A stretch of DNA of 64,000 nucleotides, taken from Actinomycetota bacterium (GTDB taxonomy: Bacteria > Actinomycetota > Actinomycetes > Actinomycetales > Dermatophilaceae). This document shows positions 820-61,941 of this stretch, piece after piece (the stretch's first letter is position 1; each line of letters opens with the position of its first letter). The position numbers and the translations under genes are program-made. The notes beneath the pieces were generated by a model. The model was not told the DNA's origin, searched no databases, and was given only the letters and a program-made list of their open reading frames with translations. The stretch covers positions 475,806-539,805 of the forward strand of contig JAIUOP010000001.1 of NCBI GenBank assembly GCA_020161815.1, given 5' to 3'.

Positions 820-947
820 CCGGCGGTGCGGTCGGCGCCCGGCCACGGACCGGTATGCCGTCCGCGCGGGTGAGGTGCAGGGCTCGCGCCGGTCACGGGC
901 TCGTGGTCCGCAGCGGGCCAGTCGTGCGTTTCCTCGGCGCATGACAC

Positions 948-964
948 GATGGGGGAACCCCATC
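948..964. repeat. 7-bp perfect inverted repeat GATGGGG-gaa-CCCCATC in the pruA 5' region
   Basis: Read directly from the sequence, about 28 nt upstream of the pruA ATG. Function unknown. Confidence 0.3.
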
Positions 965-991
965 TCAACGACGAGCAGGAGCAACCCTTCC

Positions 992-59071: not shown

Positions 59072-60262
59072 GTGTTCGACCTGAGCCAGGACCACGAGGA
59101 CTTCCGCACGGTCGTCAAGGAGTTCGCCGCCGCCGAGATCGAGCCGCACGTCGCGGGCTGGGACCGCGCCAAGCACTTCCCGACCGACCTCGTCGCCAAG
59201 CTCGGCGAGCTGGGCCTGTTCGGGCTCGTCGTGCCCGAGGAGTTCGGCGGCTCGCTCGAGCACTCCGACGGTGGGGCGTTCACCAGCCTGTGCATCGCCA
59301 TCGAGGAGCTCGGTTATGTCGACCAGTCGATCGGCATCACGCTCTCGGCCGGCGTCGGCCTGGGCATCAACCCGATCCTGACCTACGGCACTCCCGAGCA
59401 GAAGGCCCGCTTCCTCCCCGACCTCGTCGCGGGGCGGGCGCTCGCCGGCTTCGGCCTCACCGAGCCCGATGCCGGGTCCGACGCCGGCGCGACGCGCACG
59501 CGCGCGCACCTCGCCGACGGGGAGTGGACGGTCAACGGCGCCAAGGCCTTCATCACCAACTCGGGCACCGACATCACGTCCGTCGTCACGGTGACGGCGC
59601 GCACCGGGGAGGACGACCAGGGCCGCCCCGAGATCTCGGCGATCATGATTCCCTCCGGCACGACGGGCTTCACCGTGGAGGCTCCCTACGACAAGCTCGG
59701 CTGGCACATCTCCGACACCCATGGCCTGACCTTCGAGAGCTGTCGCGTCCCGGCCGAGAACCTGCTCGGCGAGCGCGGGGCCGGCTTCAAGCAGTTCCTC
59801 AAGACCCTCGACGACGGCCGCATCGCGATCTCTGCACTCGCGCTCGGGATGATCCGCCGGATGCTCGACGAGTGCGTCGCCTACGCCAGTGCCCGCACCG
59901 CCTTCGGGCGCCCGATCGGCGTCAACCAGGGCGTCGCCTTCCCGATCGCCGACCTCGCCGTCATGGCCGAGACCGGTCACCAGCTCACCTACCGCGCGGC
60001 CTGGCTCAAGGACGAGCAGGAGGCCGGGCGCCGCTCGGTCGCCGAGGTGAAGAAGGCCGCCGCCATCGCCAAGCTCTACACCTCCGAGGCGGCCGTCACA
60101 GCAACCCGCATCTCCACCCAGGTGTTCGGCGGCAACGGCTTCATGGAGGAGTACCCCATCGCCCGCTTCTACCGCGACGCCAAGATCCTCGAGATCGGCG
60201 AGGGCACCTCCGAGGTCCAGCGGATGGTCATCGCTCGCCACCTCGGCCTGCCGCAGGCCTGA
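59072..60262 (+). CDS. acyl-CoA dehydrogenase (isovaleryl-CoA dehydrogenase-like)
   Basis: Typical N-terminus (V)FDLSQDHEDFR, GLTEPDAGSD, and the catalytic-Glu C-terminus EIGEGTSEVQRMVIAR. GTG start. Confidence 0.9.
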   Translation: MFDLSQDHEDFRTVVKEFAAAEIEPHVAGWDRAKHFPTDLVAKLGELGLFGLVVPEEFGGSLEHSDGGAFTSLCIAIEELGYVDQSIGITLSAGVGLGINPILTYGTPEQKARFLPDLVAGRALAGFGLTEPDAGSDAGATRTRAHLADGEWTVNGAKAFITNSGTDITSVVTVTARTGEDDQGRPEISAIMIPSGTTGFTVEAPYDKLGWHISDTHGLTFESCRVPAENLLGERGAGFKQFLKTLDDGRIAISALALGMIRRMLDECVAYASARTAFGRPIGVNQGVAFPIADLAVMAETGHQLTYRAAWLKDEQEAGRRSVAEVKKAAAIAKLYTSEAAVTATRISTQVFGGNGFMEEYPIARFYRDAKILEIGEGTSEVQRMVIARHLGLPQA

Positions 60263-60279
60263 GTGGGAGAGTGGGCCCC

Positions 60280-61941
60280 GTGACCGACCAGGCCGACCCG
60301 ACCGGTATGCCGTCCGCCCCCGACCCTGCCCCCGTCACCTCCGGCGGTGGCCCGGCCGCGCCATTGCCAGACGCTGGAGCCGGTGCCGGCACCGGCGACC
60401 CGCGGGTGGCGGACGTGCGCGCGCGCCTGGCCGCGGCATACGAGGCCTCGGCGAGCGCCCCGGAACGCGCGGCGGCCAAGCTCGCCCAGCAGCGCAAGCT
60501 CTACGTTCGCGACCGCCTCGCCCTCCTCCTCGACGAGGGGAGCTTCGTCGAGGACGGGCGCTATGCGAACGCGACGGCCGAGGGCCTGCCGGCCGACGGC
60601 GTCGTGACCGGTCGGGGCACCGTCGAGGGGCGACCGGTCATCGTCATCGCCAACGACCCCACGGTGAAGGCGGGCTCGTGGGGAAGCCGCACCGTGGAGA
60701 AGATCGTGCGGGCCACCGAGATGGCGCTGCGGGAGGAGCTGCCCGTCTTCTGGCTCGTCGACTCGGCGGGGGCACGCATCACCGACCAGGTCGAGATGTT
60801 CCCCGGACGCCGCGGGGCCGGGCGGATCTTCCACAACCAGGTGGCGCTCTCGGGGCGGGTCCCGCAGATCTGCTGCCTCTTCGGCCCCTCGGCGGCGGGC
60901 GGGGCCTACATCCCCAGCTTCTGCGACGTCATCATCATGGTCGAGGGCAATGCCTCGATGTACCTCGGCAGCCCGCGGATGGCCGAGATGGTCGTGGGGG
61001 AGAAGGTCACCCTCGAGGAGATGGGCGGCGCGCGCATGCACTGCACCGTCTCCGGCGTCGGCGACCTCCTCGCCCAGGACGACGAGGAGGCGATCGAGCT
61101 CGCCAAGCTCTACTTCTCCTACCTGCCGGTGAACTGGCAGTCGCCGCTGCCGACCTACCACCCCGAGGAGCCGGCGGTCGCGCTGACGCGAGCGACGGTG
61201 CCGGAGAGGGAGTCCCAGCCCTTCGACATCCACGACGTCATCGACGGTCTCGTCGACGAGGACTCCTTCTTCGAGATCAAGCCTCTGTATGCCGGTGAGC
61301 TCGTCGTCGGCTTCGGCCGGATGCAGGGGGAGAGCGTCGGCATCGTCGCCAACAACTCGGCCGTCAAGGGCGGCGTGCTCTTCACCGACTCCGCGGACAA
61401 GGCGGCGCGCTTCATCTGGCTGTGCGATGCCTATTCGATCCCGCTCATCTACCTCGCCGACGTGCCCGGGTTCATGATCGGGTCCGAGGTCGAGCGCGGC
61501 GGCATCATCCGACACGGCGCCAAGATGGTCTCGGCCGTCTCCTCGGCGACGGTGCCGCAGTTCTGCGTCGTGGTCCGCAAGGCCTACGGCGCGGGGCTGT
61601 ATGCCATGGGTGGGCCGGGCTTCGGCCCTGACGCGACGATCGCCCTCCCCACCGCCCGGATCGCCGTCATGGGTCCCGAGGCGGCTGTGAATGCGGTCTA
61701 CGCCAACAAGATCGCCGAGGTCGAGGCGGCCGAGGGTCCGCAGGCGCGGGAGGCCTTCGTCGCGGCCCGTCGGGCCGAGTACCTCGAGGACGTCGACCTG
61801 GAGCGCCTCGCCGCCGACCTCGTCATCGACCAGGTCATCGAGGCGGATGCGCTGCGCGATGAACTGTTGCTCCGCCTGCGATATGCCGCGCATCGCGACC
61901 GCCACTTCTCCTCGAAGCGCCGGGGCATCCCCCCGGTCTGA
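60280..61941 (+). CDS. acyl-CoA carboxylase carboxyltransferase (beta) subunit, MccB/PccB-like
   Basis: Crotonase-fold CT motifs (VIANDPTVKAGSWG, LVDSAGARI, GPSAAGGAYIP, PGFMIGSEVE, RKAYGAGLYAM). GTG 60280 follows GGGAGAG; GTG 60271 is an alternative. Confidence 0.9.
   Translation: MTDQADPTGMPSAPDPAPVTSGGGPAAPLPDAGAGAGTGDPRVADVRARLAAAYEASASAPERAAAKLAQQRKLYVRDRLALLLDEGSFVEDGRYANATAEGLPADGVVTGRGTVEGRPVIVIANDPTVKAGSWGSRTVEKIVRATEMALREELPVFWLVDSAGARITDQVEMFPGRRGAGRIFHNQVALSGRVPQICCLFGPSAAGGAYIPSFCDVIIMVEGNASMYLGSPRMAEMVVGEKVTLEEMGGARMHCTVSGVGDLLAQDDEEAIELAKLYFSYLPVNWQSPLPTYHPEEPAVALTRATVPERESQPFDIHDVIDGLVDEDSFFEIKPLYAGELVVGFGRMQGESVGIVANNSAVKGGVLFTDSADKAARFIWLCDAYSIPLIYLADVPGFMIGSEVERGGIIRHGAKMVSAVSSATVPQFCVVVRKAYGAGLYAMGGPGFGPDATIALPTARIAVMGPEAAVNAVYANKIAEVEAAEGPQAREAFVAARRAEYLEDVDLERLAADLVIDQVIEADALRDELLLRLRYAAHRDRHFSSKRRGIPPV

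Follow-up and report, generated by a model that had tools for sequence, protein, structure and literature searches.

What kind of element is a 12-nucleotide sequence that recurs in unrelated genes of an actinobacterial chromosome? The DNA analyzed here, which we call the window, is a 64-kb stretch (64,000 nucleotides; positions 475,806 to 539,805 of contig JAIUOP010000001.1, assembly GCA_020161815.1) from a member of the Dermatophilaceae. It has a G+C content of 72% and is about 94% coding by our own gene calls, which are based on codon log-odds and match the public gene calls wherever comparison is possible. A preliminary description of this DNA had pointed to about ten copies of the 12-mer GTATGCCGTCCG and had suggested that the recognized element is longer and degenerate, with the octamer GTATGCCG as its core. 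Our statistics are based on the window, on 15.3 kb of the same genome outside the window, and on about 170 kb from relatives. They show that the 12-mer is genuine, with firm statistical support. It is subordinate to the octamer, a hyper-abundant word that is maintained at the level of DNA in this clade, and its tail is largely private to this genome.

The 12-mer and its parent octamer

There are ten exact copies of GTATGCCGTCCG in the window, seven on the plus strand and three on the minus strand, located where the preliminary description had placed them. Its judgment that chance recurrence is negligible also holds. We took expected 12-mer and octamer counts from 100 dinucleotide-preserving shuffles of the window; the shuffled sequences contain a mean of 0.01 copies of the 12-mer and never reach ten. 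C comes next in nine of the ten, which makes the 13-mer GTATGCCGTCCGC the true recurring word. The copies are listed below together with the two near-variants that had been reported, both of which exist.

853..864, plus strand: 12-mer, then C; intergenic and non-coding, 139 nt upstream of the ALDH gene 992-2623
4836..4847, plus strand: 12-mer, then G; within the Orn/Lys/Arg decarboxylase gene, reading G-M-P-S-G
19386..19397, plus strand: 12-mer, then C; contains the ATG that starts the MarR open reading frame (ORF) 19388-19924, reading M-P-S-A
34904..34915, plus strand: 12-mer, then C; antisense to the ALDH gene 33671-35119 (minus strand), reading R-T-A-Y
38816..38827, plus strand: 12-mer, then C; antisense to the phosphomannomutase-type (PGM/PMM) gene 38795-40495 (minus strand), reading T-A-Y
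40032..40043, minus strand: 12-mer, then C; sense in the same phosphomannomutase-type gene, 38795-40495 (minus strand), reading Y-A-V-R
53940..53951, minus strand: 12-mer, then C; sense in the VWA/CoxE-like gene 53198-54655 (minus strand), reading Y-A-V-R
57159..57170, plus strand: 12-mer, then C; sense in the tryptophan 2,3-dioxygenase gene 56329-57186, reading Y-A-V-R
57933..57944, minus strand: 12-mer, then C; antisense to the PfkB kinase gene, reading T-A-Y
60305..60316, plus strand: 12-mer, then C; sense in the carboxyltransferase gene (public call starts at 60280), reading G-M-P-S-A
14995..15006, minus strand: near-variant GTATGCCGTCCC, octamer intact, one mismatch in the tail
54148..54159, plus strand: near-variant GTATACCGTCCG, octamer decayed, tail intact

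Three copies are read as Y-A-V-R, three in antisense as (R)-T-A-Y, and three as M-P-S, while one is non-coding. The 12-mer is therefore decoded in three frames, as GMPS/MPSA, YAVR, or RTAY, in unrelated proteins, as had been claimed; Pfam upholds the gene assignments and places the host proteins in different families. The copies are not confined to paralogous sequence either: paralogy is excluded because the flanks of the ten copies are unrelated, with a logo that is flat from -20 to -1 and past +13. The copies at 19386 and 53940 have 18 nt in common, for which we estimate a chance probability of about 0.1, and we gave this no weight.

The MarR-family ORF that starts inside one copy (19388-19924; Pfam MarR_2, 6e-12) is not among the public gene calls of the contig. 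Its ATG lies 7 nt after TAAATT, an arrangement that suggests a leaderless mRNA.

The window contains 62 copies of GTATGCCG (214..62499), 35 on the plus strand and 27 on the minus strand, compared to about one (0.9) expected; the ten 12-mers are among them. This corresponds to a density of 0.97 per kb and an enrichment of about 60-fold. The word is sharply defined: none of its 24 one-mismatch neighbors is enriched in the window, and 62 of the 74 GTAT tetramers there fall within GTATGCCG. It is non-palindromic, differing from its reverse complement CGGCATAC, and it shows no strand polarity, with a ratio of 35:27 in the window (P = 0.026 against a 70:30 skew) and close to 50:50 in all seven related loci. 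Gaps average 1.07 kb and have a coefficient of variation (CV) of 0.86, within the 5-95% range of random placement; with this CV we reject regular spacing.

The majority of octamers, 79%, lie in coding DNA: 28 copies are in-frame as nnG-TAT-GCC-Gnn, encoding Tyr-Ala, and 11 are antisense as nCG-GCA-TAC, encoding Ala-Tyr. The word is nevertheless about four times denser in intergenic DNA (3.2 per kb) than in coding DNA (0.82 per kb). Thirteen or 14 copies lie outside the gene calls, four of these in a 42-bp tandem repeat (31733-31931); when these four are left out, 10 of 58 octamers fall in the non-coding 6.3% of the sequence (P = 0.003). Hyper-abundance, strand symmetry, use of several frames, and intergenic enrichment are all characteristic of uptake sequences of the kind known as DNA uptake sequences (DUS) and uptake signal sequences (USS). 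We rejected a dispersed repeat element such as a repetitive extragenic palindrome (REP) or a miniature inverted-repeat transposable element (MITE), which would have conserved flanks or a longer consensus and be mostly intergenic, given the coding location of most copies and a logo that is flat outside positions 1-13.

Does the recognized element extend beyond the octamer? In the raw logo, position +9 carries 0.59 bit (T 29, C 24, G 6, A 3), and +13 and +15 show minor peaks. The preliminary description had asked for codon context to be controlled; we therefore set each octamer copy against the remaining NNNNGCCG occurrences in the window that belong to its frame class. Information remains 3' of the octamer: T at +9 is observed 29 times compared to 9.0 expected (P = 9e-8), TCCG 10 times compared to 0.64 (P = 2e-9), TCCGC nine times compared to 0.17 (P = 2e-13), and TGNG 12 times compared to 0.98 (P = 7e-10). 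Put another way, TCCG follows 10 of the 62 octamers but only 0.57% of the other NNNNGCCG contexts (P = 3e-12). After T at +9, then, there are two favored tails, CCGC and GNG; octamer copies with C at +9 follow the Ala codon that comes next after Tyr-Ala.

Only part of this extension is found elsewhere. In the seven related loci, which contain 79 octamer sites, the preference at +9 holds (T 28 compared to 12.1 expected, A 5 compared to 20.7), the order being T, then C, with A and G avoided. In contrast, TCCG is only weakly enriched there, at three of the 79 sites compared to 0.53 expected, and all three are TCCGG. The 15.3 kb from the same genome outside the window contain 11 octamers, one of them with TCCGC, a proportion compatible with the 15% in the window. 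A pyrimidine at +9, preferably T, is the sole clade-wide extension, and the TCCG(C) tail is largely private to this genome. The 12-mer represents one of at least two favored tails (TCCGC and TGNG), with no single longer consensus; it is the most frequent 3'-extended form of the octamer word and not an element of its own. The earlier proposal of a longer, degenerate element thus stands as far as the 3' information and the clade-wide preference at +9 are concerned, but not with regard to degeneracy, given the sharp core, nor with regard to a longer consensus that includes the TCCG(C) tail. That the word is recognized at all is something that we infer, because no reader protein is known.

Maintenance at the DNA level and distribution across the clade

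Codon usage shows that the word overrides the coding preferences of its hosts. The window contains 263 TAC and 68 TAT codons for Tyr overall. In the context G|TAY|GCC|G, however, TAT is used 28 times and TAC once, compared to 40 TAT and 262 TAC (13% TAT) elsewhere (Fisher P = 7e-21). Likewise, GCA accounts for 4% of Ala codons, yet in Ala-Tyr pairs it is found in 11 of 17 cases after a codon ending in CG and in 0 of 45 others (P = 2e-8). The synonymous positions 1 and 7 of the word are locked in the same way. The effect reaches the protein sequence: observed/expected ratios are 1.32 for Tyr-Ala and 1.35 for Ala-Tyr, compared to 0.92 and 0.99 in 66 outgroup loci (P = 3e-4 for the combined excess), while the control dipeptides Phe-Ala and Ala-Phe have ratios of about 1 everywhere.

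The preliminary description had proposed comparing orthologs for convergent synonymous and conservative changes. In a codon alignment of NAD-glutamate dehydrogenase (NAD-GDH), some octamer sites are common to relatives at permissive Tyr-Ala or Ala-Tyr positions, and at these shared sites the outgroups carry G-TAC-GCC-G; other sites originated by non-synonymous change. According to these results, it is the DNA sequence of the word that is maintained, by the use of rare synonymous codons and by some amino-acid replacements; the word is densest in non-coding DNA. Given that it occurs about once per kb, overrides codon preference, and reshapes dipeptides, the agent behind it must be strong and sequence-specific.

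The word is not limited to this genome. The NAD-GDH of the window shares 72-75% identity with that of two uncultured Actinomycetota metagenome-assembled genomes (MAGs); with a Micrococcales MAG, Humibacillus xanthopallidus (Intrasporangiaceae), a Dermatophilaceae MAG, and Ornithinimicrobium, identity is 55-64%. Among over-represented 8-mers, GTATGCCG ranks first in the related loci L002, L003, L005 (Humibacillus), L006, and L064 (Ornithinimicrobium), second in L001, and third in L057; in L002 its density is 0.89 per kb. The octamer and the +9 pyrimidine are common to Humibacillus, Ornithinimicrobium, and related MAGs. In contrast, 70 other actinobacterial loci (Streptomyces, Kitasatospora, Micromonospora, Arthrobacter, and others), which served as the outgroup for octamer density, contain 0.013 per kb, near background.

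One relative uses a different form. In L004 (MAG MFD01721.bin.3.318, whose GDH is 75% identical), GTATGCCG has only two copies, whereas GGATGCCG, which differs by T to G at position 2 of the word, is found 36 times in 24.9 kb compared to 4.9 expected (P = 1e-19). The count of GGATGCCG in the window is exactly at baseline. Related species therefore carry either the same word (L001-L003, L005, L006, L057, L064) or a single-base dialect of it (L004), as is seen with uptake sequences. Two strains that are 1.0% and 2.1% divergent (L089 and L090) keep all 12 and four of their shared octamers intact, respectively; with only about one change expected by chance, this is uninformative.

Inverted pairs of the word form hairpins at the ends of genes. 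The window has one example of such a motif-bearing 3'-end hairpin:

47173..47240, both strands: convergent octamer pair (47173 on the plus strand, 47233 on the minus strand) around a hairpin with a 16-bp stem, between two convergent genes

This hairpin has a folding energy of -56.7 kcal/mol (z = -6.3). In relatives, inverted motif pairs are themselves the stems of strong hairpins (L002 1466-1486, L002 14800-14834, and L003 8398-8423), with z-scores of -4.7 to -7.2; three such pairs are observed compared to 0.36 expected (P = 0.006). The L002 and L003 pairs were confirmed to lie at gene 3' ends or between convergent genes, the pair at L002 14800-14834 directly after the GDH stop codon. DUS pairs in Neisseria terminators form hairpins likewise.

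Other inverted arrangements were seen as well. In L004, inverted dialect copies at 9838-9853 form a palindrome or hairpin. A near-perfect long hairpin at 47097-47150 (AGAGCAACACTCCCGAGAA...TTCTCGGGAGTGTTGCTCT), downstream of the Pyr_redox gene, adjoins the 47173-47240 hairpin in the window. We also scanned viral contigs for inverted pairs of the form GTATGCCG-N(0-30)-CGGCATAC. There were at least 120 matches, mostly in contigs of moderate G+C, and no motif-rich high-GC contig was found among those listed (L094-L213); the spacing in the listed contigs is often about 20-30 nt.

Several tandem repeats lie in the window. The 42-bp repeat at 31733-31931 has 4.7 copies with one octamer per unit. On the minus strand it reads P-P-G-F-G-S-A-P-P-P-P-Y-A-A with high GC3, directly upstream of the public start call (31704) of the DUF7847 gene, and it may be a proline-rich N-terminal extension of that gene missed by the gene call. 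A second repeat had been linked to the 12-mer in the preliminary description:

37837-38105: 56-bp tandem repeat, 4.8 copies, adjoining the DUF222 gene

Its unit does contain AGTGCCGTCCGGC, but a link to the 12-mer beyond the chance overlap of GC-rich sequence is unsupported. Metagenome assemblies of the same organism differ here by two units (112 bp), L081 on the one hand and the window and L082 on the other. Two further repeats are intergenic. The one at 2620-2826 has 2.5 copies of an 82-bp unit (98% matches) and immediately follows the stop codon of the ALDH gene; the other, at 19893-20038, has 2.8 copies of a 53-bp unit and is located at the MarR 3' end.

Candidate explanations for the word

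Starting from the observed statistics, DNA-level maintenance, clade distribution, dialect, and 3' information, we propose by analogy that GTATGCCG is a recognition site spread by a self-reinforcing bias in DNA transfer or recombination, much like DUS and USS; we give this reading a probability of roughly 40%. Both the reader protein and the link to DNA transfer are inferred. The word would be bound, in a sequence-specific manner, by some component of the machinery for DNA transfer or recombination; candidates are uptake in natural transformation and, for actinomycete conjugation, a double-stranded DNA translocase of the TraB/FtsK type. Fragments bearing the word would be preferentially transferred and recombined, and molecular drive would then spread it through the genomes of the population, as proposed for the DUS of Neisseria and the USS of Pasteurellaceae. 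The extended tails might be higher-affinity contexts, and GGATGCCG might be a dialect that arose through a shift in reader specificity. We rank this explanation first because, taken together, its features match those of DNA uptake sequences: the word is hyper-abundant, strand-symmetric, randomly spaced, and enriched between genes, it affects frame and peptide composition, it forms hairpin pairs at the ends of genes, it has single-base dialects, and its core carries a weaker extension.

Several points weigh against it. We identified no reader protein, competence apparatus, or conjugative translocase, and there is none in the window. A literature search found nothing on natural transformation in this family, and we know of no instance ourselves. 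The octamer core is sharper than those of DUS and USS, and the TCCGC tail is only weakly replicated outside the window (one of 11 sites). Finally, the unique 6-9 fold depletion of one neighbor of the word, GTACGCCG, is also a signature of context-specific C-to-T mutation or repair bias, and in relatives whose density is 0.25-0.5 sites per kb, this bias could on its own account for nearly all of the copies.

This depletion supports the best of the alternatives, an accumulation of the word through modification-linked mutation or repair bias, in the style of HIP1 (highly iterated palindrome 1) or very-short-patch repair. Here, a methyltransferase or mismatch endonuclease acting at GTA(C/T)GCCG would drive C to T, and the word would build up either incidentally or as a site of methylation that serves epigenetic or repair functions. 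Indeed, GTACGCCG lies one C-to-T step from the word and is the sole depleted neighbor, at 0.267 per kb in the outgroup compared to 0.031 in the window and 0.047 in relatives (P = 6e-6), and the 6-9 fold depletion is found in the motif-bearing loci (the window, L001-L006, L057, L064). The dialect genome L004 shows the same depletion at the same position, with one copy of GGACGCCG compared to 8.6 expected, and many orthologous sites differ from the outgroup by TAC to TAT alone. HIP1 has been tied to orphan methylases (PMC4390886; bioRxiv 10.64898/2026.06.24.733823).

In the window and in L002, however, the numbers exceed what conversion can provide. By our reasoning, a two-state conversion has a ceiling at the outgroup sum of GTACGCCG and GTATGCCG, which is 0.28 per kb, or about 0.4 with trapping. 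This ceiling roughly covers L001, L057, and L064, where the word is about equal to the sum, and perhaps L003 and L005; it is passed in L002 (about 3-fold over the sum) and in the window (3.5-fold). In intergenic DNA, the word reaches 3.2 per kb, whereas its precursor GTACGCCG is found at 0.13 per kb in outgroup intergenic DNA. Nor does the bias predict the Tyr-Ala and Ala-Tyr excess, the 3' tail preferences, or the locking of synonymous positions 1 and 7. No methyltransferase was found across the 79 kb analyzed. We reject a pure C-to-T hotspot at GTACGCCG as the sole cause here in view of the abundance, the intergenic density, the excess of dipeptides, and the tails; because two-state conversion falls short on density, dipeptides, locked positions, and tails, a general force favoring the complete word is needed. 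Overall, we regard the modification-linked explanation as unlikely, though a serious contender.

Another alternative is direct selection on each copy as the site for an abundant chromosomal protein involved in nucleoid organization, in strand discrimination for repair, or in self-marking against a nuclease, with no DNA transfer. A density of about one site per kb on both strands with random spacing fits such a role, as do the conservation of the word across genera and the sharp core; the sites kept in the two diverged strains point the same way but are not significant. It is hard to see, though, how weak selection on about a thousand dispensable sites per Mb would override codon preference 28:1, and we know of no candidate protein. 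Moreover, Tetrasphaera phage TJE1 (L215, NC_019930; 58% G+C) is not enriched, with two octamers in 49 kb compared to 0.55 expected, which means that not every replicon in such hosts requires the word; this result is weak, since the host of this phage need not itself carry the word. We therefore consider direct selection without transfer rather improbable.

We rate still lower a hotspot like Chi for RecBCD or AdnAB, or an orienting word like the KOPS (FtsK orienting polar sequences), because the word has no polarity, neither in the window nor in the seven related loci. It is a frequent, non-palindromic 8-mer with dialects in related lineages, and Chi motifs vary between lineages too (PMC8022716). 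Against this, it uses rare codons and is enriched about 60-fold. Chi sites use preferred codons and are enriched a few-fold only.

The last alternative, an artefact or trivial cause (chance, paralogous sequence, fragments of a dispersed mobile element, or contamination with Illumina adapters), is already refuted. Adapters deserved attention: the P7 adapter contains CGTATGCCGTCTT, our literature search for the octamer on both strands, alone or with Actinobacteria, returned essentially adapter and primer listings and nothing that names the word, and the octamer at 1392 (GTATGCCGTCTT) continues TCTT like the adapter, a 12-nt match to P7. However, contamination is excluded because the sites are in-frame in unrelated conserved proteins, because the window is 100% identical to contigs of independent JGI and ENA assemblies from several metagenomes (JGI 3300026282, with a 445-kb contig, JGI 3300003782, and ENA ERZ27233587), and because cultured isolates with complete genomes (L005, L064) carry the word too. 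The TCTT site at 1392 is itself conserved in L003 and L006, and we judge its match to P7 to be a coincidence. In addition, the observed counts were reached in 0 of 100 shuffles, the flanks are unrelated, and there are no matches to known RNA families (Rfam) or tRNAs in the window.

Returning to spread by transfer or recombination, a stronger version of this proposal is that GTATGCCG(T) represents the first case, both in Actinobacteria and in any Gram-positive lineage, of a signal for sequence-specific uptake or transfer of DNA, with a reader in the Dermatophilaceae/Intrasporangiaceae that favors certain DNA on entry or in recombination, dialects such as GGATGCCG, and GTATGCCGTCCGC as the high-affinity form here; we hold this version tentatively and with some doubt. 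The dialect switch and the genome-specific tail permit a comparative search for a DNA-binding gene with recognition residues that co-vary with the word. The word can also be used as a cheap taxonomic marker for binning these genomes, and it may help to make them transformable; the clade includes Tetrasphaera-like organisms, which are abundant in wastewater treatment.

Comparison with known systems

The closest likeness is to the DUS of Neisseria. Both are short, non-palindromic words found about once per kb on both strands, genic in several frames and enriched between genes. In both, inverted copies pair into hairpins where genes end (for the actinobacterial word, in relatives), a sharp core carries a weaker extension, and lineages have dialects that differ by single bases. 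The 12-mer and the AT-DUS variant ATGCCGTCTGAA even have eight bases in common, ATGCCGTC, which is most likely a coincidence. The 12-mer continues with CGC and not TGAA, only two of the 62 octamers continue with TCT, and the DUS sequence GCCGTCTGAA with its invariant CTG core is not matched. The core is 8-9 nt here compared to 10-12 nt in DUS, and one neighbor (GTACGCCG) is uniquely depleted here. The host is a high-GC Gram-positive actinobacterium whose nearest relatives are Micrococcales, outside the Neisseriaceae with their ComP minor pilin. With tail and taxon mismatched, and probably the receptor too, we reject identity as DUS.

The USS of Pasteurellaceae (core AAGTGCGGT) is likewise a hyper-abundant, asymmetric word that is enriched between genes. 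It has a long AT-rich flanking consensus, whereas the flanks past +13 are flat here, and the taxon is different. According to Findlay and Redfield 2009, as cited in PMC3497702, USS has preferred reading frames and a measurable effect on peptide composition. Both features are common to USS and the actinobacterial word.

HIP1 of cyanobacteria (GCGATCGC) is an octamer as well, enriched 15- to 300-fold (PMC5861425), and it has recently been proposed to be an uptake signal (bioRxiv 10.64898/2026.06.24.733823). The two words are alike in their clade-wide conservation and in being maintained against codon preference, with a function that is debated. In contrast to HIP1, the actinobacterial word is asymmetric and randomly spaced and has no known methylase; as it is neither a palindrome nor periodic, we reject the label HIP1-like in the strict sense.

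The TraB recognition sequences (TRS; 8 bp, at clt loci), the KOPS of FtsK, and the SpoIIIE recognition sequences (SRS) are likewise non-palindromic and 8 bp long, their readers are the winged-helix domains of translocases for double-stranded DNA, and TraB-type conjugation is typical of actinomycetes. TRS, however, are few plasmid repeats in clusters whereas the actinobacterial word is dispersed, and KOPS and SRS are strongly polar whereas it is without polarity. Chi resembles it as a frequent, lineage-variable, asymmetric 5-8-mer, but Chi is skewed to the leading strand, consists of preferred codons, and is enriched few-fold, none of which holds for the actinobacterial word.

Known hyper-abundant words are rare, and each of them (DUS, USS, Chi, KOPS, HIP1) has pointed the way to a particular machine that handles DNA. 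The octamer goes unmentioned in surveys of abundant oligonucleotides and in papers on HIP. As far as we know, GTATGCCG adds a new hyper-abundant word to this group, with a dialect and an extended form, in a phylum for which the literature searched describes none.

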